Virus record (IMG/VR): IMGVR_UViG_3300021356_000012
Coordinates: 6,141 to 70,140 of that record
Source: a virus
DNA: 64,000 bases
Direction: 5' to 3' (one strand)
The notes beneath the pieces were generated by a model that was not told the DNA's origin, did not search any database, and saw only the letters and a program-made list of their open reading frames with translations. Position numbers and translations under genes: made by a program. Numbering within the stretch: the first letter of the stretch is position 1; each line of letters starts with the position of its first letter. Below are positions 41,774-63,806 of this stretch, piece by piece.

Positions 41774-41802
41774 ATTATACACTAATTTAAACGACCTGTC
41801 AA
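41774..41802 (-). promoter_or_regulatory. Perfect sigma70 promoter on the minus strand (antisense)
   Basis: Reverse complement reads TTGACA-17 bp-TATAAT. Confidence 0.7.
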
Positions 41803-41819
41803 CACTTTTTTAAAATATT

Positions 41820-42260
41820 ATGAAAATAGGTTTTACCTGCTCTACTTTTGACCTTTTACATTCCGGACACGTGCAGATGTTACGCAACGCAAAGGACCAG
41901 TGCGACTACTTAATTGTGGGTTTGCAGACTGACCCTACGATAGATAGACCGGATACGAAAAACAAACCAATACAGTCCTTGGTTGAGAGATACACTCAAC
42001 TGAGTGCGATTCGTTATGTCGATGAAATTATTCCTTATGAGTCTGAGAGAGATCTCGAAGATATCTTGTCACTATATAAGCTCGATATACAGATCCTTGG
42101 TGATGAGTACCGTGATAAAGACTTCACGGGGAAAGACATTGGACGCAAACGCGGTATTGAGTATTACTTTAATGATAGGTCGCATAGATTTTCGTCGAGT
42201 GAGTTGCGACAACGGGTTGCCTATAGAACGGGTGTTGGATTGACACCTCGCATAAAATAG
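41820..42260 (+). CDS. Cytidylyltransferase (glycerol-3-phosphate cytidylyltransferase/TagD-like)
   Basis: TFDLLHSGH (HxGH), LIVGL.TD, YVDEIIPY, SSS.LR. Confidence 0.88.
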   Translation: MKIGFTCSTFDLLHSGHVQMLRNAKDQCDYLIVGLQTDPTIDRPDTKNKPIQSLVERYTQLSAIRYVDEIIPYESERDLEDILSLYKLDIQILGDEYRDKDFTGKDIGRKRGIEYYFNDRSHRFSSSELRQRVAYRTGVGLTPRIK

Positions 42261-42268
42261 GGTATAAT
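42240..42268 (+). promoter_or_regulatory. Sigma70-type promoter for gp55
   Basis: TTGACA-17 bp-TATAAT. Confidence 0.8.
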
Positions 42269-44004: not shown

Positions 44005-45725
44005 TTAAATTTCAGAAACTCCGTTGGAAGAATTTTCTTTCGACGGGGAACTACTTTAACGAAATTGATTTCTTAACAGAGCCAACTAATCTTATTGTTG
44101 GTGACAATGGTGCAGGTAAATCCACGATGTTGGACGCACTGTCATTTGCACTGTTTGGGAAGCCACACCGTAAGATTACCAAAGCACAGTTGATAAACAC
44201 TATCAACAACAAAGACTGCCGTTGTGAAGTAGAGTTCACCGTCAACGGTATGCAGTATCGTGTTGTCCGTGGTATCAAACCGAACAAGTTTGAAATCTGG
44301 AAAGACGGTACTATGATTAATCAGAACTCACACGCGAAAGAGTACCAAGAAGTTCTTGAGAAAAACGTCTTACAGATGTCCCACAAGAGCTTCCACCAAA
44401 TTGTTGTTCTCGGCTCCTCTTCGTTCATCCCGTTTATGCAACTCAACTCAACCTCTCGACGGGATGTAATCGAAGACTTGTTGGATATCAACATCTTCTC
44501 GAAGATGAACACTATCCTCAAGGAAAAAACCTCTCAACTCAAAACGGAGCTTGAGAACAACAACCATTCCATTGAGGTGGTTAAAACTAAGATAAATGCA
44601 CAGAAGAAATATATCCGTGATTTAACCGCCATCAATACTGCGCATCGCAAAGAGAAAGAGAATGAGATTGCGGAGTTGCAGAAAGAGATTACAGAGATTC
44701 AGGAAACCAATGCAGGTCTGTCATCCACGGTCAATGTGTTGTTACCTGAACTGACAGAGAATCTCTCCAAGGTTCGTGGACTGAAACAACAACTTGACAA
44801 ATACTATGCGACGTTTCAATCTCAAGTCAAGCAGGTCGTCAAGGAAGCCAAGTTCTTCGAAGAGAACGAACACTGTCCCACATGTGACCAAGAGATTGCA
44901 GAAGACCTTCGCGAAGATAAGAAGGACGCTGCAACTAAACGTGCGCGTGAACTAAAACACGCAATGAACAAGGCGGACGAAGAATTGTCTGCATATACTT
45001 CCGAGATTGAGGACCTTGAACTCCGTATGTCTCAGTGCATGAGCGACCAAAATACTCTGAACAATAACAACCAGACTATTTCGCGTCTGCAGAGAACCAT
45101 TGACAAAATTAATGGTGACCTCACTGAAATGGCTGATAGCTCAGGTGACATGGGTCAGGCAAATAAGGACCTGAACGTTCTGGACGAAGAACTATTAGAC
45201 TTAACCGATGAGAAGTTTACCCTTAACGAACGGTCTGCATACAATCGTATCGCGGGAGAGTTGTTGAGAGACACTGGTATCAAGACGAAGATTATTAAAC
45301 AGTACGTTCCTGTGATTAATCAGTTGACCAACCAGTATTTGCAGATACTAGATTTCTTTGTTCACTTTGAACTCGATGAGAGTTTTAACGAGACTATCCG
45401 TTCACGGTTCCGTGACAAGTTCTCTTATGATTCATTCTCTGAGGGTGAGAAACAACGTATCGACCTATCTCTATTATTTACTTGGCGACAGATTGCCAAG
45501 ATGAAGAATTCTGTATCTACTAACCTATTGATACTGGATGAAACGTTCGACTCTTCGTTGGACGGTGAAGGTGTTGATAATCTCATGAAGATTATTGAAA
45601 CATTGAAGGAAGACACGAACGTCTTCGTTATTTCTCACAAGACTGAGCTGGAGGACGCGCACTTTGAACGTAAGTTGTCGTTCTACAAAGAGAAGAACTT
45701 CAGTCGCATGAAAGAAATAACTTGA
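44001..45725 (+). CDS. gp46: Recombination ATPase gp46 (Rad50-like)
   Basis: GDNGAGKST, CPTC zinc hook, FSEGEK signature, LILDE, ISH. Confidence 0.96.
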   Translation: MIKFQKLRWKNFLSTGNYFNEIDFLTEPTNLIVGDNGAGKSTMLDALSFALFGKPHRKITKAQLINTINNKDCRCEVEFTVNGMQYRVVRGIKPNKFEIWKDGTMINQNSHAKEYQEVLEKNVLQMSHKSFHQIVVLGSSSFIPFMQLNSTSRRDVIEDLLDINIFSKMNTILKEKTSQLKTELENNNHSIEVVKTKINAQKKYIRDLTAINTAHRKEKENEIAELQKEITEIQETNAGLSSTVNVLLPELTENLSKVRGLKQQLDKYYATFQSQVKQVVKEAKFFEENEHCPTCDQEIAEDLREDKKDAATKRARELKHAMNKADEELSAYTSEIEDLELRMSQCMSDQNTLNNNNQTISRLQRTIDKINGDLTEMADSSGDMGQANKDLNVLDEELLDLTDEKFTLNERSAYNRIAGELLRDTGIKTKIIKQYVPVINQLTNQYLQILDFFVHFELDESFNETIRSRFRDKFSYDSFSEGEKQRIDLSLLFTWRQIAKMKNSVSTNLLILDETFDSSLDGEGVDNLMKIIETLKEDTNVFVISHKTELEDAHFERKLSFYKEKNFSRMKEIT

Positions 45726-45750
45726 CAACCCTTGTGTCTTATTATATAAT
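45722..45750 (+). promoter_or_regulatory. Sigma70-type promoter for gp45
   Basis: TTGACA-17 bp-TATAAT. Confidence 0.8.
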
Positions 45751-51069: not shown

Positions 51070-51132
51070 TCGACATGCCAAATAGTTGGGTGTCGAATCA
51101 TAACTTGCTTAAATTTAAGGAGTCAAAACATG
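51070..51132 (+). promoter_or_regulatory. Structured 5' leader of hsp20, ROSE-like RNA thermometer
   Basis: Hairpin TCGACAT..GTGTCGA, then ACTTGCTTA-AATT-TAAGGAGT pairing UUGCU against the SD. Confidence 0.55.
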
Positions 51133-51585
51133 ACATTAACAGCAAAACAACTGTTCCCACGTTCAGCATTCGTCGGATTCGATAGTATGATCGACGAATT
51201 GGATAGAGTCGCTAGACACTCGGGTGATACGTTCCCCCCGCATAATATTTTAAAGACGGGAGAGGATCAATACCTAATCGAGTTAGCAGTCGCAGGTTTC
51301 TCTGAAGACGAGCTCGAGATCGAAGTAAAGAACCGTACACTTACCATTCGAGGGTCTGTCAACGACACGAGAGAGTATATCCATAAAGGCATTTCGACGA
51401 AGAGATTTGAACGCCAGTTCCGTCTGTCGGAGTATGTTGAAGTAATGGGAGCTGATTTCAGGAACGGATTACTAGCCATTTCATTGGAAGTAATAATCCC
51501 TGAAAGTCAGAAGCCTCGTAAAATAACGATCAATCGATTATACGAGGAGAGCAATAATGGAGAGGAGAAGGTATCCCAAGAGTAA
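51130..51585 (+). CDS. hsp20: Small heat-shock protein (IbpA-like)
   Basis: FPPHNI...Y.IELAVAGF...YIHKGIS.KRFERQF.L...GLL.I.L....PE..KPRKI.I. Confidence 0.95.
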   Translation: MTLTAKQLFPRSAFVGFDSMIDELDRVARHSGDTFPPHNILKTGEDQYLIELAVAGFSEDELEIEVKNRTLTIRGSVNDTREYIHKGISTKRFERQFRLSEYVEVMGADFRNGLLAISLEVIIPESQKPRKITINRLYEESNNGEEKVSQE

Positions 51586-51705: not shown

Positions 51706-52431
51706 ATGAATCTAATCTATCAGTATTGGGACGGAGATATTACTCCTGAAGTTTCTGCAGGGATTGATGCAATGGCCGCGTATGCCCGACGCATTGGTGT
51801 AGAGTACAGATTCGAACAAAACACAAATTATCTCGAAACGAGGAATTATACTACCAAAGGTCATGACCATTTCTTTGGTGCACTCAAACCGTTACTTGAG
51901 TACGAGTTCGACGATTATGATACGATTATGTTCGCGGATGTTGATATTTTCCCTATCACCGATGACAACATATTCGATACCTTCGCAGGAGAGGTTGGGA
52001 TGGTTCCCGAGCTGTTCTTAGATGCGATGCGTCCCATCACTCGTGAGCGATTCGAACACTGGAGAACCTTCCACCAATATATTCGCGAGAACCTTAACGC
52101 AGGCGTTTGTTTGTATTCAAAAGAACTAAGACGCAAGGCGCGTGATTGGTATAACCTTCCTGAGTATATTAACCACATGCGAACCATAAAGGTCAATGAA
52201 TACTTCTTGACTGACCAACCGTTCCTACAACAACTTTTTTATGGGAACAATGCGAACATACAACTATTGAGTCAAGAATGGAACTCACATGTATTCGATG
52301 AATACTGGGAGGAGTATGGGTCGTGGCGAGTAAAGAGACATGACTATAGAACACCAGATACTAAGTTTATACACTGCCGTTTAGAACACGGTGCACTTAA
52401 AGAGTTTATCAATGAATTACGATATCAATAA
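51706..52431 (+). CDS. Glycosyltransferase (GT-A fold)
   Basis: YARRIG.EY.F, MFADVD (DxD), LNAGV.L, TDQ..L, EWN, FIH. Confidence 0.72.
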   Translation: MNLIYQYWDGDITPEVSAGIDAMAAYARRIGVEYRFEQNTNYLETRNYTTKGHDHFFGALKPLLEYEFDDYDTIMFADVDIFPITDDNIFDTFAGEVGMVPELFLDAMRPITRERFEHWRTFHQYIRENLNAGVCLYSKELRRKARDWYNLPEYINHMRTIKVNEYFLTDQPFLQQLFYGNNANIQLLSQEWNSHVFDEYWEEYGSWRVKRHDYRTPDTKFIHCRLEHGALKEFINELRYQ

Positions 52432-53113
52432 ATTTGATGAACTTGGTTATGTTATAGTGAAAGATTTTATGGGTGTCGAAGAACACCAAGAAATTCACAT
52501 GGAGTGTCTACGACTGACCGAAGTGGGTATGGGACGAACACAGAACGGAGATAGTTGGGTCATGACTGCACCCAATAATCCGTGCAAGTTAGATGGTGCC
52601 ATGATGCGTTCTGGAGTATTCCGTAGACTTGGTCGTCATAGAAACCTAGTGCCTATCGCAAAGACGTTATTAAAACATGATAGGATAGATACCTACATAT
52701 CTAAGTTCTTTCCTATGCCACCTAAAGATGGCTTCTCTGTAGACTTTCACCAAGACAACCATTACATTAATGGAGACCCCAACTGTATAGTCAGTTGCGA
52801 TTTCTTTGTACACGGAGCAACCAAGGAGAGGGGGTGTCTTCGACTTATCCCTGGCTCGCACCATGAGATGAGGTCTCATACAAAGTCGTCGCACGGGGTG
52901 TTTAATTGGATGTATGTAGGCGAATCACCAGACATAATAGATATTGACATCAACGAACCTTTTGTGATATTCTTTCATCCAAATCTAGTTCATGGGTGTT
53001 ATCGCAATACAAGTATATCGTATCGTCCAAGTATCGCGTGGGAATATATACACAGGGACCATATTCCACCAACGCACAACGGGCATCAATCACAAGATAG
53101 AATAATGGTATGA
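52412..53113 (+). CDS. Phytanoyl-CoA dioxygenase (PhyH)-family 2OG-Fe(II) oxygenase
   Basis: F.ELGYVIV, FHQDNHY, GCLRLIPGSH, FHPNLVHG...N.S...R. Confidence 0.85.
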   Translation: MNYDINKFDELGYVIVKDFMGVEEHQEIHMECLRLTEVGMGRTQNGDSWVMTAPNNPCKLDGAMMRSGVFRRLGRHRNLVPIAKTLLKHDRIDTYISKFFPMPPKDGFSVDFHQDNHYINGDPNCIVSCDFFVHGATKERGCLRLIPGSHHEMRSHTKSSHGVFNWMYVGESPDIIDIDINEPFVIFFHPNLVHGCYRNTSISYRPSIAWEYIHRDHIPPTHNGHQSQDRIMV

Positions 53114-53904
53114 AGGTAAAACAAATTGTAATGAAAGGTGACGCGAGGTCGGAAGAATATGCCGCAATCTCTCGTGAGTCTTTTGCTCCCGCAATACGTG
53201 ATGGTTACATCGAATCGATTGAGACCTTCGACGCCATAACTCCGGACAGTCCAGACTTTGCCGAACATTGTGCGAAGTATAACTGGGCACCTAGTCTCAT
53301 GTCATTAGACACTTCGTCTGGTAAGAACAAGGACGACCATTCACCAACAGAGAAAGCTGGGATGTGTTCTCATTGGGAGTTGATGCGTCAACAGGGTGAA
53401 CAGGATGAGATGTTCTGGATTATTGAACATGACACGTTCTTACTACCAGAACGTTACGGTGTCTTTAAGGCACTTGTCTCTATGGCACCAAATATGTTAT
53501 ACTCCAATATTGGTCTATTCATGGGCATGTACTCTATGGACCAACGCGCGGCGCACTGGATGTACCATATACTAACCAACAAACGCTTCCCTATCAACTG
53601 TGGGCCATACTGCACACTACAGAGACTGTATCGTACTTTCACGACCGACTATCTTCACCATAATGATTACTTTGGTTTGAACAACACTGCGATTTTCCCG
53701 TGGCACAACTGTGACACTTTAACGGTCTGTCGTCACATCGGGACTCCGTTTAACGGAATGGACCAGTTGAAGCGAGGTATCCCAACACCGACGACTCAGG
53801 TGATTTCAAAACGTCTATGTGTTACTCAGGACCATCACGGGTATAATGACAGGCATATTGAAGAGCCGTGGACTCGTCATCACTTTTTTCACGTAATCGA
53901 CTAA
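53110..53904 (+). CDS. Glycosyltransferase family 25-like protein
   Basis: FDAITP, SPTEKAGMCSHWELM, IIEHD. Confidence 0.65.
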   Translation: MKVKQIVMKGDARSEEYAAISRESFAPAIRDGYIESIETFDAITPDSPDFAEHCAKYNWAPSLMSLDTSSGKNKDDHSPTEKAGMCSHWELMRQQGEQDEMFWIIEHDTFLLPERYGVFKALVSMAPNMLYSNIGLFMGMYSMDQRAAHWMYHILTNKRFPINCGPYCTLQRLYRTFTTDYLHHNDYFGLNNTAIFPWHNCDTLTVCRHIGTPFNGMDQLKRGIPTPTTQVISKRLCVTQDHHGYNDRHIEEPWTRHHFFHVID

Positions 53905-53911
53905 AAAACAT

Positions 53912-53940
53912 TTGACAACCTTAGCCCAGTGCTATATAAT
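53912..53940 (+). promoter_or_regulatory. Sigma70-type promoter for the methyltransferase operon
   Basis: TTGACA-17 bp-TATAAT. Confidence 0.8.
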
Positions 53941-53967
53941 ATGCACTGTAACTATTAAAGGTATCAA

Positions 53968-55116
53968 ATGTACAGACCATATACACTACAAGATGTTTAT
54001 GATGCCGCTGCACAGAAAAAGTTCAGCGTCATCTCTACGTTTGCGGGAGGTGGTGGCTCGTCTACGGGTTACCGTCTTGCGGGTGGTGACATTCTCGCTA
54101 TCAATGAGTTTGTTGAAGAGGCGCGAAACACCTATCGTGACAACTACCCTACCACTCCCATCGTTCCGGATGATATCAAACAACTTACGGGACAATCCTT
54201 TCTCGACCTTACAGGTCTGCAGAAGGGTGAATTGGACATCCTAGACGGGTCACCCCCTTGTTCTGCATTCTCTGTTGCTGGTAAATTGTCTCACTCCAAG
54301 GGCGGTAACCACTCTGACGGGTGGGGACAGACTAAGACTTACTCTGACGGTATGGTCGTTGAGAACATCGAAGACCTGTTCTTTGAGTTCTTGCGAGTCG
54401 CGAACGAGATTCAGCCTAAGGTCATCATCGCAGAGAATGTAAAGGGTCTCACTATCGGTGAGGCAAAAGAATATTACAATCGCATCCTGAATGAGTTCGA
54501 GAATATCGGGTATGAGGTTGTGTCTGAGGTTATGGACGCACGTTACTATGGTGTGTCACAGACGCGAAGTCGCGTTATCTTCATCGCAGTGCGCAATGAT
54601 GTTGCAGAAGAAGTGGGTCTTAATTTCCTAACGATGAACCATTTATTCCCAACTCCGTCGCGTAATGTCATCCCGCTCAAGGACGCTCTGGTCGATTTAG
54701 AGTACGACCAAGAAGAGGTAGACTATCTACGCGAGAAGTTCGAACGCACCGCGTACTGGCGCGACACGGGGTCTAAAATGGAGGCCTACCCTAGTAAGGT
54801 ATTGACGGGTATGGACTATCACCCGAAGGGTCACCACTTCAATCTTAAACGCGTATCACTTGAAGTACCCGCACCAACACTGACTGCGATGGGTAATGGT
54901 GATACGACTGCGGGTGCATTCCATTGGGCTGAACCAAGGAAGTTGACACTCGGCGAATTAAAGCGTATAATGTCCCTACCAGATGATTTCAAACTTACGG
55001 GTAAGTGGAATCAGAAGGCAGAACGAATCGGACGGATGGTACCGCCATTGATGATGAAGTCAATCGCGGAGTCTGTTTATGATAACGTATTGAGGGTATA
55101 CAATGAAAGACCGTGA
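53968..55116 (+). CDS. DNA cytosine-C5 methyltransferase-fold enzyme (probable carboxymethyltransferase)
   Basis: Motif I FAGGGG, IV GSPPCSAFS, VI ENV, VIII Q.R.R; motif X reads IGRMVPP instead of IGNAVPP. Confidence 0.9.
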   Translation: MYRPYTLQDVYDAAAQKKFSVISTFAGGGGSSTGYRLAGGDILAINEFVEEARNTYRDNYPTTPIVPDDIKQLTGQSFLDLTGLQKGELDILDGSPPCSAFSVAGKLSHSKGGNHSDGWGQTKTYSDGMVVENIEDLFFEFLRVANEIQPKVIIAENVKGLTIGEAKEYYNRILNEFENIGYEVVSEVMDARYYGVSQTRSRVIFIAVRNDVAEEVGLNFLTMNHLFPTPSRNVIPLKDALVDLEYDQEEVDYLREKFERTAYWRDTGSKMEAYPSKVLTGMDYHPKGHHFNLKRVSLEVPAPTLTAMGNGDTTAGAFHWAEPRKLTLGELKRIMSLPDDFKLTGKWNQKAERIGRMVPPLMMKSIAESVYDNVLRVYNERP

Positions 55117-55831
55117 GGCTTATATGAGTAGAGAACCAGACTTTTCCTTCGCACACCGTGACGAAGGTTTCGATAATCATATTGACCAATCAATTCGCGG
55201 GTATGATAATCTCCATGCGGATATAGTCTCTATGTCACAATACTTTGTTGAAGACGACAAGCAGGTTGTGGATATCGGGTGCTCTACAGGTAAGACCATT
55301 TATGAGATGATGAAACAGAATCACAACTTTGCACCCAACGCAATGTACACGGGTGTCGAGTACGCATCTGGTTTCAAGGATGCCATGGACCATCGAACCG
55401 AACAGATTGTTGATGAGGAGTTGGGTATCGCACGATTCATGAATATGGACGTGCGTGACTATACCTTTGACAACTGCACACTGATTACGTCGTTGTTCAC
55501 GTTACAGTTCATGCCACCGCATTGTCGTCGAGACGTTCTTAAACAGATATACGCAGGTTTGGATTGGGGCGGTGCGTTCATCTTCGCAGAGAAGACTGTA
55601 AGTGAGTGTGCACGAATTCAGGAGATTATGACGTTCCGGTTCTATGACCACAAACGTCAACACTTCTCTGGTGACGACATCTTATCAAAAGAAGTTGAAC
55701 TGCGTCACATGTTGAAACCAAACACGTGGAGAGAAATACATAGCCTATTGATGACTGCAGGGTTTGACGCCAAGAAAATCCAGCCGTTCTGGCAGAACCA
55801 TTTATTCGTTGGGGCGATTGCAATCAAATGA
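55103..55831 (+). CDS. cmoA: CmoA-like carboxy-S-adenosylmethionine synthase
   Basis: F.F......FDNHI.QSIRGY, VDIGCSTG, LFTLQF.P...R..VL.QIY.GL..GGAFIFAEK match the CmoA layout. Confidence 0.75.
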   Translation: MKDREAYMSREPDFSFAHRDEGFDNHIDQSIRGYDNLHADIVSMSQYFVEDDKQVVDIGCSTGKTIYEMMKQNHNFAPNAMYTGVEYASGFKDAMDHRTEQIVDEELGIARFMNMDVRDYTFDNCTLITSLFTLQFMPPHCRRDVLKQIYAGLDWGGAFIFAEKTVSECARIQEIMTFRFYDHKRQHFSGDDILSKEVELRHMLKPNTWREIHSLLMTAGFDAKKIQPFWQNHLFVGAIAIK

Positions 55832-56631
55832 TGTTACATATCACCAACAATCCTAACCCTAGAGACTTTCAGGGTTCTGCGAACGATACTAACCTAGATA
55901 TCTTCGCGGCGTACTCCATCCAGAATCCGTTTCTGAAAGAGTACCAGAAACACCTAGATGATGTCATGGGTTGGTTTACTGTCGGTGATCTCAAGATGCT
56001 CGATTGGGTCAGTCAGAGAGAGATTAATACCGAAGGTGGTATACTGGAGCTGGGTGTGCATCTAGGTAAGATGTTCATCCCGCTCAACATGACTGTCAAC
56101 GAAGGTACGTCTTACGCAGTCGATATCTTCGGGAAGTTGCAGGACTACAACGTGAGTCACTCTGGTGGCGACTGTCTTAATCAGGCAATGGGATTTAGAA
56201 ATAACGTCGAGAAGTATGACAAGCGTTGGAGTGGATTCAACGTGCAGATCATAAACGAAGACACGATGATGTTGGACCCGTCACACTTTGAGGGTAACAA
56301 GTTCAAGATCATCTCCATCGACGCAGGTCACCATCGACCACACGTACTAAACGATCTGTATCTTGCGGAGAAGTTAGTAACGCGGGACGGTGTGGTTATC
56401 GTCGATGATTGGTTCTGTAACGGATGGCCTGGGGTCACCGAAGGGACCATAGAGTACTTGTCTCGTGGCGAGGGACTTGTACCGTTTGCATCTTATCAAA
56501 ACAAGTTGTATCTGTGTAGATACGGTGCGCACTATAAGTGGATGTATGAAATGAAGCATTTCAAGTACAAACGCTTACCCACCAAGTTATGTGGCACAGA
56601 GATGTACGATATATGTGAACATACACATTAA
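55828..56631 (+). CDS. Class I SAM-dependent methyltransferase (Methyltransf_24-like)
   Basis: ILELGVHLGK, AVDIF, ISIDAGH...V.NDL, G.VIVDD.F...WPGV.EG. Confidence 0.78.
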   Translation: MMLHITNNPNPRDFQGSANDTNLDIFAAYSIQNPFLKEYQKHLDDVMGWFTVGDLKMLDWVSQREINTEGGILELGVHLGKMFIPLNMTVNEGTSYAVDIFGKLQDYNVSHSGGDCLNQAMGFRNNVEKYDKRWSGFNVQIINEDTMMLDPSHFEGNKFKIISIDAGHHRPHVLNDLYLAEKLVTRDGVVIVDDWFCNGWPGVTEGTIEYLSRGEGLVPFASYQNKLYLCRYGAHYKWMYEMKHFKYKRLPTKLCGTEMYDICEHTH

Positions 56632-56657: not shown

Positions 56658-57566
56658 ATGGCATACGATGAACTGCTGGGGTTTGACCCAGCGACTGAGA
56701 AACGTGACGCATTCCATTACGTCATGACTCCGGAAAAGGCTGCATATATACTCGACGAGTGTAATAATGACAACAGACCTTTTTCAGCTGCCCAAGCGCG
56801 CAGAATTAGACATTCTGTTAATGACGTTGGGTACATATGGGATGGAGACCCAATTCGTTTCAACACTAATGGGCATCTAACTGAGGGTCAACATAGACTG
56901 ACAATCATACGCGAGCAAAAGATAACAGCAGAACTCCCTGTCGTAACTGGTGTACTACCTGACCACTTCACTGAAGGTGCAGAGGCAAAGAAGAGGACAG
57001 CCGGATGTGAGATTGGTAGGAAATACCCTGAAGCATTGTCTTCTCAGATTGCGGTTCTAGGTGATATTGTAAAACGTCGTCACTTAGAAAAGTTGACTCT
57101 GCAAAATGCAATTTCTTACTGGGAACTTTATTCCGATAATGTAGTTGCAGGTTGCAGGGCGATTGATGACTTCATGACCAATGTCAGTGAGTATAGTCAT
57201 TTCGCTCGGAATTTTGGGTCATGGGCCGCACTCATGAATCTAACAAACCAAGATGATATTGCGACAGAGTTTTTAGATTATCTCAAAGAAGAAATTGTCG
57301 GTAGGGAATCGTACGCCCTCACTAAAAACTTCACCGAGTTTTTTAAACAACATTCAGATACGATGGCGAATGCGACCCGCTCGACTTTCATGTTTCAACT
57401 TTTGTGTCATGCGACTGATATGTTGATAAAGTCTAAGCATAACGCTAGAAACCACAATGGTCGTCCTGCGGAGATTCTATTAGAGAGGTCAATCGCATCG
57501 TACAACCATAAATCATTGAGACAGAATGGTACATATAGGAAGTTTCTTGCGGACCCAAGAAAATAA
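56658..57566 (+). CDS. ParB/Srx-like (DGQHR-type) N-terminal domain protein
   Basis: N..NRP...W..DGDPI.F...G.L.EGQHRL. Confidence 0.6.
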
Positions 57567-57578
57567 TTCTATCACACG

Positions 57579-57602
57579 GGGGGTTGACAACAACCCCCTT
57601 TT
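57579..57602 (+). terminator. Terminator hairpin overlapping the -35 box of the gp43 promoter
   Basis: GGGGGTTG-ACAA-CAACCCCC-TTTT. Confidence 0.75.
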
Positions 57603-57612
57603 CATTTATAAT
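57584..57612 (+). promoter_or_regulatory. Sigma70-type promoter for gp43
   Basis: TTGACA-17 bp-TATAAT. Confidence 0.8.
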
Positions 57613-57619
57613 GGTGCCC

Positions 57620-60085
57620 ATGACTGAATTTTATACATCCGTGCTTCGTAGAGGCAACCAAATCTACTATCGGGGTGTTCGCAACGGCGAACGCGTTAAG
57701 AAAAAAATTCCTTTCCAACCACATCTTTATGTGACGGGTGACAGTGCGAGTAAGTGGAAAACACTTGAGGGTCAGTCCGTCATCGAAATGCAGTTTGACG
57801 ACATGTCGGCTGCGACTGAATATATCCAAACGTATCGTGATGTCGCAAACGTCGATGTTTACGGTAACAACAACTACGTTGCGCAGTTCATTACTCGCAA
57901 GTTTCCAAAACGTATTGACTTCGACCGTTCGTTGGTGCACGTCTGCAACATCGATATCGAGGTCGCATCTGACCAAGGGTTTCCAGAACCCGCAGAGGCT
58001 GCACATCCGGTAATCTCTATTGCACTTCGTGCGCACGACGGTACCTACTGGGTTTGGGGTATGGGTGACTACACTCCCGCCGATGGTGTTCTCTTCATCA
58101 AGTGCAGTGATGAGTTTGACCTACTGACTAAGTTCCTGAACTACTGGAGTACACACACTCCGGACATCATCACCGGATGGAACACGCAGTTCTTTGATAT
58201 TCCGTATCTGGTCAACCGTATGCGCAGAATCACGGGTGATGAGAAGATGTCGAACCGCATGTCTCCGTGGGGAATCATTCGCGAACGTAACGTCATGATT
58301 AATGGTAAGGCGAATCAGGCATATGTCCTTGAGGGTATCGAACAACTCGACTACCTTGACGTTTACAAGAAGTTCACCTACACGCAACAGGAATCGTATC
58401 GTCTTGACCACATCGCGTTTGTCGAACTGGGTGAACGCAAACTCTCGTACGAAGAACACGGGAACTTGTTCACTCTGTACAAGGAAGATTACCAGAAGTT
58501 TATCGACTACAACCTGAAAGACGTTGAGTTGGTGCACCGTCTCGATGAGAAGATGGACCTCATCTCTCTGGTATTGACCATGGCCTACAAGGCGGGTGTG
58601 AATTACACCGACACTCTGGGGACCACCAACATCTGGGACTCAATCATCTATCGCATGTTGAACGAGAAACACATCGTTGTGCCACCCAAGGTGGAGAAGA
58701 CCAAGACACCATATCCAGGCGGTTATGTGAAAGAACCACAGGTGGGGTCGCATGATTGGGTCTGTTCGTTTGACCTGAACTCTCTGTATCCTAACATCAT
58801 TGTGCAGTATAACATGTCACCCGAAACGGTGATTGACGGTCTTGTTCCTAATATCTCTGTCGATAGTTTCCTTGATGGTACCACCAAAGTGACCGAAGAC
58901 GGGTACTCTCTCGCACCTACGGGTGTGCGATTCTCTCATGAACGCAAGGGTGTCGTTCCCGCAATCATTGAACAGTATTACGCGGAACGTCGCATCATCA
59001 AGGACCAGATGCTCGCGGCTGAACAAGAGATGCAGAAGAACCCGTCAAAACAACTGGAGTATCGTATCACCGCACTCAACAATCAACAGATGGCGATTAA
59101 GATTTTGATGAACTCACTCTATGGTGCATTGGGTAACAAGTATTTCCGCTACTTTGACCAACGCGTTGCAGAGTCAATCACTCTTGCTGGTCAGTTGTCG
59201 ATTAAGTGGGCAGAACGTACAGTGAACACTGAGATGCAAGGTATACTCCAAACCGATGAGGACTATGTCGTTGCAATCGACACTGACTCCGTTTACATTC
59301 GCATGGGTGGTCTGGTCGATAAGTTCCAACCCAAAAACCCTGTTGCATTCCTTGACAAGATTTGCTCCACGCATTTCGAGAAACAACTGCGCAAGTCATA
59401 TGATAAGATGGCCGCGGTCTCTGGTGCATATGTCAATCGTATGGAGATGGGTCGTGAGGTTATTGCAGACCGTGGTATCTGGATGGCGAAGAAACGATAC
59501 ATCCTCAACGTCCACAACAACGAGGGCGTGGCGTACGCGACTCCGAAACTGAAGATGATGGGCATCGAGGCGATTAAGTCTTCCACGCCTGCGGTTGTCC
59601 GCGACAAGATGAAAGAAATCTTCCGCGTTATCATTGAGGGGACGGAGTCGGATACGCAAAACTTTATCCGCGACTTCAAGGGTGGGTTCAAGACTCTCCC
59701 GCCTGAGGACGTATCGTTCCCTCGTGGTGTGAGTGACCTCACCAAGTGGTCTGACCGCGACACCGTGTACAAGAAGGGTACACCCATCCATGTCCGTGGT
59801 GCCTTGTGTTTCAATAATGCAATCGCGCAGGCTGGTTTGCAGAACAAGATAGAACTCGTGAAACAGGGTGAGAAGATTCGTTTCTGTTACTTGCGCGTCC
59901 CTAATCGTTTGGGTGAGAACGTGGTGTCGTTCCCGCTAAACCTTCCGAAAGAACTAGGTCTACATACCCACATCGATTACGACATAATGTTCGAGAAAAC
60001 TTTCCTTGACCCACTCGAACCAATCTTAGATGCAGTAGGGTGGTCGGCAGAACCTAAGGCATCACTGGAGGACTTTTTCGGTTGA
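57620..60085 (+). CDS. gp43: Family B DNA polymerase gp43
   Basis: Exo DIEV, GWN...FD.PY; Pol [10 protein letters not shown]...NSLYG, DTDS; C-terminal clamp-binding SLEDFF; start placed at ATG 57620. Confidence 0.98.
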
Positions 60086-60110
60086 CAATAACAGTCTGGT
60101 GTGGTATACT
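60082..60110 (+). promoter_or_regulatory. Sigma70-type promoter
   Basis: TTGACA-17 bp-TATACT. Confidence 0.75.
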
Positions 60111-60116
60111 CCCCTT

Positions 60117-60917
60117 ATGAAACTGGATTTAATATGCAAAAAGGTTAGGAAGGATATTGCGATTGACTTTATCCAGAAACATCATTACTCACCTGTCCTA
60201 CCTAGACTTACCAAACACTACTTGGGGTTTTACCTTGATAATGAGTTACGTGGTGTACTGACTCTTGGTTGGGGGACTCAACCCAAGGCAACCATCAACA
60301 AAATGTTTGAGGGTCTGGAATCTCAACACTACTTTGAGATTGGTAAGATGTGCATGGACGATGACATGCCTAAGAACTCTGAGTCTCAGATGATGTCTCT
60401 CACGGTCAAGTGGATGAAAGAGAATACTGACTGTCTCTTTCTTTACACCATGGCCGATGGTATCATGGGCAAGTGTGGTTACGTATATCAGGCATCTAAC
60501 TTTTACTTTGGTGAGAAATACCTTACCGATGTATACATGATGGAAAATGGTGAGAAACTACATCCTCGCTCAACAAAAGCCCTGTGCAAAGAAAACGCAC
60601 AACTCCTTGGTAAGGATAAAGTTTTTTGGTTAACGTCCGACTTTATGGTATCTAAGGGTATATCGAGAATCAAGGGTTATATGTTTCGATACATCTATCC
60701 ACTGAACAAGAAGGCGAAGAGACTCCTAAAGAAATCTACAATGAACTGGACGTTGGGTGAATATCCTAAAGACGATAGTTTAGAGTGGTTCGATGCAACC
60801 GTTGCACCCAAGAAAAAAATTGACCAACCTAAATTTGTTTTGGAGTTGGAAAACATTAAATATAATAGTAGTAACGTGGGAAACTCTAAGACTTCCTTGG
60901 AGCAGTTTTTCAGTTGA
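60117..60917 (+). CDS. Mom-like (GNAT-fold) DNA modification protein
   Basis: FIQKHHYS, GVLTLG, EIGKMC....PKNSES..MS, TMADG..G..GYVYQASNF; C-terminal SLEQFF. Confidence 0.65.
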   Translation: MKLDLICKKVRKDIAIDFIQKHHYSPVLPRLTKHYLGFYLDNELRGVLTLGWGTQPKATINKMFEGLESQHYFEIGKMCMDDDMPKNSESQMMSLTVKWMKENTDCLFLYTMADGIMGKCGYVYQASNFYFGEKYLTDVYMMENGEKLHPRSTKALCKENAQLLGKDKVFWLTSDFMVSKGISRIKGYMFRYIYPLNKKAKRLLKKSTMNWTLGEYPKDDSLEWFDATVAPKKKIDQPKFVLELENIKYNSSNVGNSKTSLEQFFS

Positions 60918-61896: not shown

Positions 61897-62835
61897 ATGA
61901 GAATCTTAGTAACAGGCGCGGCAGGTTTTATTGGTTCGCAACTAGCAAAAAGTCTAATGGATGCAGGACATACCGTCAAAGGCATCGATAACTTCAACAA
62001 TCACTTATATGAACCGCAACTCAAACGTGACCGTATGGTTCACTTTGGTCTCGACATTTGGGGTTGTGATTTAAAGGACAACATTAAGACCGAGGCGTTG
62101 TTGCGAGACTTCGAACCTCAAGTCATCATCCACTTGGCCGCACTCGCGGGTGTACGTGACTCTCTAGGTAAAGAGAAACACTATCACGCCAACAACATTG
62201 ACGCAACACAGAATCTTATCGACATCTGTAAGACACATCTACCCGACGTGCGTATCATCTACGCATCAACGTCTTGTGTCTACGCAGGGTCTCAGACTCC
62301 GTGGACAGAAGGTCAAGAGACAGGTAAACAGTTGAACGCATATGGATACACCAAGTGGGCGAACGAGTGTCAGTTCCAATCGTCGGGACTCAACACGGTC
62401 GGTCTGCGATTCTTTACGGTCTATGGACCTTGGGGTCGTCCGGACATGGCATTGTTCGATTTCACTAAAAATATCCTTGCAGGAAACGAGATTACCGTGT
62501 ATAATTACGGTGATATGAAACGCGACTTTACGTACGTGGACGATATCATTGATGGTATCGAATGCGTACTTCGTCACGCAGAGATTCCTTCGGGAGAAAT
62601 TTTCAACATCGGTCGTGGTGAACAAGTCAACTTGATGGACTTCATTGCAGAGATTGAGAAGAACACGGGTAAAGAGGCCATCAAGAACTTGGCACCTAAA
62701 CATCCGGCAGATACCAAGGAGACTTGGAGTAACACTGCGAAACTTGAACAGTATGGATATTCACCCAAGGTAAGTATTGGGGAAGGTGTCCGTCGTTTTT
62801 ATGAATGGTACAAAACTTATAATGAGGTAGACTAA
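61897..62835 (+). CDS. NAD-dependent epimerase (UDP-glucuronate 4-epimerase-like)
   Basis: TGAAGFIG, HLAALAGVR.S, Y...K, LRFFTVYGPWGRPDMA, RDFTYVDDI. Confidence 0.9.
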   Translation: MRILVTGAAGFIGSQLAKSLMDAGHTVKGIDNFNNHLYEPQLKRDRMVHFGLDIWGCDLKDNIKTEALLRDFEPQVIIHLAALAGVRDSLGKEKHYHANNIDATQNLIDICKTHLPDVRIIYASTSCVYAGSQTPWTEGQETGKQLNAYGYTKWANECQFQSSGLNTVGLRFFTVYGPWGRPDMALFDFTKNILAGNEITVYNYGDMKRDFTYVDDIIDGIECVLRHAEIPSGEIFNIGRGEQVNLMDFIAEIEKNTGKEAIKNLAPKHPADTKETWSNTAKLEQYGYSPKVSIGEGVRRFYEWYKTYNEVD

Positions 62836-63806
62836 TGTCTAACGACTTGCCACTGAGTCCAACGAATCCGTTTCGTATGGGCATTGTGGGTCATGGCTTT
62901 GTTGGTCAGGCGCTCGAGTATGCGTTTACGCATCCGATGCTGGACTTCAAACTAATTGACCCCAAATACAACACGAATGTCGATGACCTAAAGTCATACG
63001 ACCCTCATTGCGTCTTTATATGTGCACCGACTCCGTCACTGGACTCGGGTCACGTAGATTCTTCTATTGTAGAAGACGCAGTGTTGAAGTGTTTGAAACA
63101 CACTAACGCACTGGTAGTAGTTAAATCAACAATTACTCCAGACGTTATCACGCGACTCTACAACTCGATGAGTCGTCGCGAGACAGACCGTTTCGCATAC
63201 AATCCTGAGTTCTTGACTGAGAAGAACGCGAAGGCAGACTTCGTGACTGCAAAGTATCATGTCATCGGTGGGTCACCACAGGCGACACAAGAACTAATCG
63301 AAATTTACGATATCTTTTCTGGTTGTGAGTCTAACGACTATCATCGCATGACTGCGTTTGAGGCATCGTTTGTTAAGTATGCAATCAACTCATACTTGTC
63401 AACTAAGGTGACTTTCTTCAACCAGTTATATGACCTTGTCAATGCGTACGGGTGTTCTTATAATATAATCACTCGTGCAGTAGGTCTTGACGACCGCGTT
63501 GGTATGGGTCACACCCGTGTCCCTGGCTTCGATGGTAAACGCGGATTCGGTGGAGCATGTCTACCAAAAGACACTAAGGCATTCCTTGGGTTCTCTACAG
63601 TGGAGACTGAGGACGGTGAGGCGTCTTTTGATTTACTTGAAAAAGTTCTTGACATCAACACCCGTTATCGTGTACAGTATGAGCTTGATGAACGTGAAAA
63701 AGTAAACAATATTACTTTCGTAGATTTTGGAGACAAACATGTCGATAATGGACAAACTGAAGAAGAACTCAAAAATCAAGGAGACGGAGACGCTCTCCCA
63801 GAGTAG
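62835..63806 (+). CDS. ugd: UDP-glucose/GDP-mannose dehydrogenase family protein (short form)
   Basis: GHGFVG, FICAPTP, KSTITP, YNPEFL.E, KY..N.YL..KVTFFN, GFGGACLPKD. Confidence 0.85.
   Translation: MSNDLPLSPTNPFRMGIVGHGFVGQALEYAFTHPMLDFKLIDPKYNTNVDDLKSYDPHCVFICAPTPSLDSGHVDSSIVEDAVLKCLKHTNALVVVKSTITPDVITRLYNSMSRRETDRFAYNPEFLTEKNAKADFVTAKYHVIGGSPQATQELIEIYDIFSGCESNDYHRMTAFEASFVKYAINSYLSTKVTFFNQLYDLVNAYGCSYNIITRAVGLDDRVGMGHTRVPGFDGKRGFGGACLPKDTKAFLGFSTVETEDGEASFDLLEKVLDINTRYRVQYELDEREKVNNITFVDFGDKHVDNGQTEEELKNQGDGDALPE

Follow-up and report, generated by a model that had tools for sequence, protein, structure and literature searches.

A predicted CmoX-CmoA cassette for DNA cytosine carboxymethylation in an uncultured marine T4-like phage

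The stretch of DNA analysed here, called the window below, comprises 64 kb of a 70,140-base IMG/VR virus contig (CheckV completeness 39%) and carries adjoining homologues of cmoX and cmoA, the genes of a DNA cytosine carboxymethylation system known from phage S-B43. The source is an uncultured marine T4-like phage, and all genes around cmoX and cmoA lie on the + strand. The elements of the pair, positions being those of the window, are:

53912-53940, + strand: perfect sigma70-type promoter TTGACA-N17-TATAAT before cmoX, 12/12 consensus
53968-55116, + strand: cmoX, C5 methyltransferase homologue of 382 amino acids with C98 as predicted nucleophile and R356 as predicted carboxylate contact (PF00145 and PDB 8YF3 matches)
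54943-54971, + strand: second perfect sigma70-type promoter, inside cmoX, 12/12 consensus
55103-55831, + strand: cmoA, carboxy-S-adenosylmethionine (carboxy-SAM, Cx-SAM) synthase homologue of 242 amino acids (TIGR00740, 4GEK/4IWN, SpCmoA and phrog_4752 matches)

The CmoX/CmoA pair was described by Yang et al. (Nat Commun, December 2025; PMC12783734) as writing 5-carboxymethylcytosine (5cxmC) into phage DNA. According to that account the S-B43 CmoA (SpCmoA) makes Cx-SAM from S-adenosylmethionine (SAM) and prephenate, in vitro and in E. coli, with a kcat of 2.33 per s vs 0.23 for E. coli CmoA, i.e. tenfold faster. SpCmoX, a C5 methyltransferase homologue, uses Cx-SAM to carboxymethylate the cytosine of GC sites, yielding 5cxmC, likewise in vitro and in E. 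coli; the 8YF3 structure (1.9 A) shows its Arg350 in contact with the carboxymethyl group, Cx-SAM is reported as the sole donor accepted by the wild type, and the R350N mutant takes neither donor. CmoY then ligates glycine onto the CmoX product, and further ligase families are also mentioned (PMC12783734).

The window cmoX product is a full-length match to PF00145 (2.6e-55, profile positions 1-322 of 324) and scores 149.6 bits against TIGR00675, where the cut-off is 100.65; it has the C5-cytosine methyltransferase fold with all catalytic motifs present. Motif X reads ERIGRMVPP, and its arginine, R356, is encoded by cgg at 55033-55035. An earlier note on this DNA had described a complete Dcm-fold enzyme with motif X IGRMVPP and R356 at nucleotide (nt) 55033, and the PF00145 match and the codon bear out both coordinates and residues. 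By phmmer the protein aligns with SpCmoX (PDB 8YF3) at an E-value of 1.5e-150, residues 3-375 against 3-369, an alignment that pairs ERIGRMVPPLMMK with ERVGRMVPPLMMK; identity is 63% to both the S-B43 and the S-CRM01 proteins. F25, E47, F48, D69, S95, P96, P97 and C98 of SpCmoX are identical and identically numbered in the homologue, including the 8YF3 cofactor contacts F25, E47, F48 and D69 (4/4), and SpCmoX R350 aligns with R356; all residues named in the paper are kept. The motif X arginine to which the earlier note drew attention is the equivalent of the arginine seen in 8YF3 to contact the carboxymethyl group.

The cmoX and cmoA open reading frames (ORFs) overlap, as had been noted; the overlap measures 14 nt, and close relatives keep the cmoA start at 55103 (ATG, MKDRE...). 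Over residues 13-242, 95% of its length, the product shares 54% identity with SpCmoA, and it is 53% identical to the S-CRM01 counterpart; it matches phrog_4752 at 7.7e-55 and the E. coli CmoA structures 4GEK/4IWN at 1.8e-20. The SAM-binding D-x-G-C-S-x-G loop is kept, VVDIGCSTG being aligned to VYDLGCSLG of E. coli CmoA. The description of the gene as CmoA-like was thus right in kind, although the protein falls below the NCBIfam equivalog cut-offs (see below). On sequence, the window pair is supported as orthologue-level relatives of SpCmoX and SpCmoA.

A scan of IMG/VR with a CmoX alignment yielded at least 513 relatives, of which the best 80 loci were kept and surveyed by tblastn (E <=1e-5) with the window proteins and SpCmoY. 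These 80 include several loci from one contig (no de-duplication), and 35 of them, with >=1500 nt upstream and >=4500 nt downstream, form a full-context subset. The genes that flank the pair in the window are:

51130-51585, + strand: Hsp20
51706-52431, + strand: weak GT8-like gene
52391-53113, + strand: PhyH dioxygenase
53110-53904, + strand: 264-amino-acid protein, putative GT25-like GT-A glycosyltransferase
55828-56631, + strand: Methyltransf_24 protein (O-methyltransferase-like)
56658-57566, + strand: 302-amino-acid protein, phrog_5931, possible accessory gene by co-occurrence with cmoX
57584-60085, + strand: family B DNA polymerase (PolB)
60099-60917, + strand: Mom-family protein (PF25680, 2.6e-55)

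The genes found beside cmoX in the survey are:

cmoA: 72/80 best loci, 34/35 full-context loci
CmoY homologue: 37/80 best loci, 22/35 full-context loci
302-amino-acid protein: 9/80 best loci, 6/35 full-context loci
Methyltransf_24 protein: 3/80 best loci, 1/35 full-context loci
264-amino-acid protein: 23/80 best loci, 13/35 full-context loci

All but one of the full-context loci have cmoA beside cmoX. As a control, 80 loci were fetched through the 264-amino-acid glycosyltransferase, and 67 of them, with at least 1300 nt downstream, were usable; cmoX is present in 20 of the 67, and 47 run straight on to the polymerase region. Phage C48C1, the nearest GenBank phage by polymerase (PolB identity 74%; Kyanoviridae, host unrecorded), has Hsp20, the 264-amino-acid glycosyltransferase gene and the polymerase, and is cassette-free. 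Since cmoX occurs in only 20/67 control loci and C48C1 is cassette-free, cmoX-cmoA is an optional insert in the Hsp20-to-polymerase stretch of the lineage. Polymerase identity to cultured cyanomyoviruses is at most 48%, and megablast found no match to the locus among GenBank phages.

Taken together, the locus appears to be a CmoX-CmoA DNA cytosine carboxymethylation cassette, a reading to which we give a probability of roughly 0.9. The natural two-gene 5-carboxymethylcytosine pathway put forward in the earlier note is supported by homology to SpCmoX and SpCmoA, by the conserved residues and by the gene arrangement. With the chemistry shown in phage S-B43, we infer activity, target motif and end product for the window phage. 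CmoA would convert SAM and host prephenate to carboxy-SAM; Cys98 of CmoX would attack C6 of cytosine, and the carboxymethyl group would be moved from carboxy-SAM, its carboxylate held by Arg356, to C5. Both genes would be early genes read from the consensus promoter before cmoX, with the promoter embedded in the 3' part of cmoX probably feeding cmoA. The cassette sits as an optional insert in the variable stretch that, in this phage lineage, separates the Hsp20/glycosyltransferase genes from the DNA polymerase gene. 5cxmC in the phage DNA would shield it from at least some restriction enzymes, and, without a CmoY-type amide ligase in the contig, bare 5cxmC would most likely be the end product.

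Several findings weigh against this reading. The CmoA homologue matches TIGR00740 at 2.8e-28 and 99.2 bits, under the equivalog cut-off of 193.3, and NF011995 at 80.1 bits, under the cut-off of 285. In the phmmer alignment to 4GEK, E. coli Arg199 (QKRSML), for which a salt bridge to the carboxylate is described (PMC3663124), pairs with E197 of SKEVELRHM. In its variable, target-recognition part (residues 211-320) the CmoX homologue shares only 41% identity with SpCmoX, and therefore the GC target motif of SpCmoX is not transferable to the homologue. Observed-to-expected ratios (O/E) of palindromes give no clear sign of GC-site protection: among 4-mers the ratio is 1.05 with GC vs 0.83 without, and among 6-mers the order is reversed, 0.77 vs 0.84. 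Moreover, the contig is only 39% complete, and a ligase or other tailoring enzyme could lie in the unseen 61%. The arginine caveat had been raised in the earlier note and the alignment confirms it, but SKEVELRHML corresponds to DKEKELRDML in the proven SpCmoA, a common K-E-x-E-L-R stretch; it is therefore no argument against activity of the homologue, and Arg199, absent from the proven SpCmoA too, does not define the phage CmoA clade. R201, four residues or one helical turn past E197, may take the place of E. coli Arg199.

The CmoA scores under the equivalog cut-offs, the C5 methyltransferase fold with its full set of catalytic motifs, and the mention of SAM depletion as a possible side effect in the Discussion of the CmoX paper (PMC12783734) would fit an ordinary SAM-dependent 5-methylcytosine methyltransferase, accompanied by a CmoA homologue that serves tRNA modification or SAM depletion. 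We regard this as extremely improbable, given that the closest characterised enzyme takes only Cx-SAM, that its arginine and pocket residues are all kept, and that cmoA accompanies cmoX so regularly in the full-context loci. A less improbable alternative is that 5cxmC is only an intermediate, tailored by an enzyme from the unsequenced 61%, by the O-methyltransferase-like protein at 55828-56631 (to a methyl ester) or by the 302-amino-acid protein. S-B43 virion DNA is reported to hold only the glycine amide, free 5-carboxymethyldeoxycytidine (5cxmdC) being absent (PMC12783734), and the CmoY homologue in 22/35 full-context loci and the incompleteness of the contig point the same way, as does the methyltransferase gene, which overlaps the cmoA stop (ATGA at 55828-55831) and is next to cmoA in four out of five further contigs carrying it. 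Set against this, CmoY, where present, always adjoins cmoX, in all 37 of the best loci that have it and in both records with a PF00733 match among five searched whole; no PF00733 match exists in the whole of a complete 200,733-base genome with cmoX-cmoA, and a CmoY homologue is also absent from 13/35 full-context loci. The methyltransferase itself occurs without cmoX and cmoA in one control locus, L088, directly after the glycosyltransferase, and its model (predicted local distance difference test score, pLDDT, of 62) is unlike carboxyl methyltransferases. An intermediate role of 5cxmC thus seems rather unlikely. The whole 70,140-base contig has neither a PF00733 nor an SpCmoY match, and since the ligase adjoins cmoX in relatives, bare 5cxmC is the predicted, most likely end product in the window phage.

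To our knowledge, bare 5cxmC as the final virion base has been shown for no native phage. Were the O-methyltransferase, whose gene is translationally coupled to cmoA, to act on the 5cxmC carboxylate, the product would be 5-methoxycarbonylmethylcytosine, a methyl ester in DNA; the reaction would parallel the CmoM step in tRNA, and the lineage would carry a base not yet described. We consider this a long shot; a milder and more likely proposition is a ligase-less lineage whose virions have bare 5cxmC as the final base.

The purpose of the cytosine mark in the window phage is presumably anti-restriction. HhaI resistance is the sole protection shown for cytosine carboxymethylation in the CmoX paper (PMC12783734). 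As a separate observation, GATC is strongly avoided in the window (41 observed vs 286 expected, O/E 0.14, z -19), and eight 6-mer palindromes are rare or absent, with TCTAGA, GTCGAC, ACTAGT and GACGTC all at 0. This avoidance suggests host restriction pressure outside the cover of the cytosine mark.

The earlier note had assigned the pair a single sigma70 promoter; the perfect site at 53912-53940 stands, and it is not single, a second one lying at 54943-54971. The first ends 28 nt before the cmoX ATG, and of 59 unique upstream regions from relatives, 18 have a perfect site no more than 150 nt ahead of cmoX. The second lies 132 nt before the cmoA ATG and is written in the cmoX codons L326-T327 ... 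R333-I334-M335 of motif IX. These amino acids are kept in 41 out of 56 unique sequences from relatives, and all twelve promoter bases in 25/56 with 11 different spacers, counts that are inflated by relatedness; the joint codon choice has an expectation of 0.0033 from window codon usage. S-B43 and S-CRM01, in which cmoA is upstream of cmoX, showed no promoter at the corresponding place. In all, the window has six perfect TTGACA-N17-TATAAT sites vs 0.01 expected in shuffles, the further four being:

41774-41802, - strand: perfect sigma70-type site
42240-42268, + strand: perfect sigma70-type site
45722-45750, + strand: perfect sigma70-type site
57584-57612, + strand: perfect sigma70-type site overlapping a terminator-like hairpin immediately ahead of the polymerase gene

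The stretch is also present in sequencing runs of 15 studies, three of the runs being recorded as metatranscriptomes. RNA-library runs are kept as contigs from which starts, strands and levels are not readable, and in which DNA may be present. RNA-library contigs of two studies start at 53968 and 53970, positions across which a DNA run continues, and this hints weakly that a transcript boundary follows closely on the first promoter; that 53800-53896 is covered by no RNA-library contig proves nothing. At the embedded promoter one such contig starts inside the site (54955) and another spans it (54892-55042), which neither supports nor refutes its use.

Among the neighbouring genes, that for the 302-amino-acid protein is found in 8 of the 20 cmoX-bearing control loci and in 0 of the 47 without cmoX. 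The protein has no Pfam (up to E 10), NCBIfam or PDB sequence match. Its family, a large one of marine viruses, comprises 319 clusters at E <=0.001, with no Pfam domain among the 120 listed, and a D-G ... E-x-Q-H-R stretch is invariant in 33 members; we take this stretch to resemble DGQHR/ParB-type motifs, a likeness demonstrated by no tool. Profiles of 4 and 33 members found no ParB in PDB, and PF02195 has no match in five cmoX-bearing records, one of which has a 48% homologue of the protein; the sole ParB lead is a neighbour cluster in the Atlas with ParB_N in 16% of its members. In the lack of any PF02195 match, an identity with the CmoX-associated ParBc/ParB_N protein (PF02195, PMC12783734) is not demonstrable. 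The protein is possibly an accessory gene product and working partner of CmoX.

For the Methyltransf_24 protein only 3 near-identical loci were found in a single-protein search of IMG/VR and only 6 clusters in a 5.8-billion-protein search. It accompanies cmoX in four control loci and is found without it in one, L088, in which the order is GT8-like, PhyH, 264-amino-acid protein, methyltransferase and polymerase, with no cmoX or cmoA. Its model, of modest confidence, resembles Mg-dependent hydroxyl O-methyltransferases (MeT1, COMT, MycF and TrmR). The protein more likely belongs with the glycosyltransferase genes. A role as hypermodification partner of cmoX is weakened by L088.

The 264-amino-acid protein belongs to a family in which 5 of 18 members match PF01755. 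Its AlphaFold model (pLDDT 89.9) has as best Foldseek matches mimivirus R655, a beta-1,4-galactosyltransferase and GLT25D1, i.e. its fold matches collagen hydroxylysine galactosyltransferase as well as R655, and the protein is by its predicted structure a GT25-like GT-A glycosyltransferase. The PhyH dioxygenase gene overlaps the start of the glycosyltransferase gene (52391-53904, + strand), a pair that recalls protein hydroxylation followed by glycosylation, perhaps of a virion protein. PhyH is found in 4 control loci with cmoX and 9 without (n=67). The two genes were considered as a new hypermodification pathway together with cmoX, which is rejected since both occur without cmoX (the glycosyltransferase in 47/67 control loci); they are lineage backbone, unlinked to cmoX. 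The idea that the two flanking proteins of ~265 amino acids are a disguised CmoY is likewise rejected, there being no similarity to SpCmoY. Farther along, after a primase-like gene, a nucleotide-sugar epimerase and a UDP-glucose dehydrogenase-like gene lie at 61897-63806 (+ strand), an arrangement also present in Phage C48C1; their products could supply sugar to the phage glycosyltransferases.

The Mom-family gene (60099-60917) directly follows the DNA polymerase gene, so that adenine may be modified as well as cytosine. In 62 Mom loci, taken with flanks of up to 9 kb, cmoX and cmoA are both present in 4, and one more has only a 37% C5 methyltransferase match; on this co-occurrence Mom is rejected as a second user of Cx-SAM.

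The window pair is one more example of the published CmoX-CmoA system, not a discovery. The novelty attached to the pathway in the earlier note falls away with its publication in December 2025, and a related cyanophage system, as the note mentions, has indeed been reported (PMC12783734). Little is added to what is in print: besides the chemistry and the structure there is a census of 5,615 CmoX candidates (SPPC motif and R350) drawn from IMG/VR v4, which is the contig's own collection, UniProtKB and MGnify-derived phage sequences, with 4,257 CmoA, 2,251 ligases and 1,660 ParBc proteins reported on the census contigs (PMC12783734). The window is of use as a natural ligase-less cassette for testing bare 5cxmC as the final virion modification, for its conserved promoter, which coincides with codons of a methyltransferase motif, and for the 302-amino-acid protein, which is seen only beside cmoX in the sampled loci and may be a working partner.

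The nearest characterised system is that of S-B43, which shares the same two enzymes (CmoX 63%, CmoA 54%) with the SPPC motif, the arginine and the cofactor-contact residues; both phages are T4-like, and their carboxymethylation genes lie in the replication-gene region. The order in S-B43 is however cmoA-cmoY-cmoX, whereas here cmoX precedes cmoA with the 14-nt overlap; CmoY is present there and absent from the contig here; the consensus promoter embedded in cmoX has no equivalent at that place in S-B43; and with the variable region of CmoX 41% identical the target motif may differ. S-CRM01 (NC_015569) has a two-gene form like that of the window, annotated as a tRNA methyltransferase and a DNA methyltransferase (53% and 63% identity, respectively), with no annotated ligase and no SpCmoY match in its 13-kb locus. 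There cmoA precedes cmoX, and the two are flanked by the clamp-loader genes and regA instead of standing directly before the polymerase; the window polymerase is 39% identical to that of S-CRM01, indicating a different phage lineage. The engineered M.MpeI N374K, as described in the CmoX paper, resembles the window enzyme in that a basic residue at the motif X asparagine lets a C5 methyltransferase fold use Cx-SAM; it differs in having lysine rather than arginine, in being CG-specific and in using host CmoA (PMC12783734). With the bacterial CmoA/CmoB tRNA cmo5U pathway (4GEK, 4IWN; PMC3663124) the window pair shares the Cx-SAM synthase fold and the SAM-binding loop, but the acceptor enzyme here is a DNA C5 methyltransferase homologue instead of CmoB, and the position of Arg199 is occupied by glutamate both here and in the proven phage enzyme.

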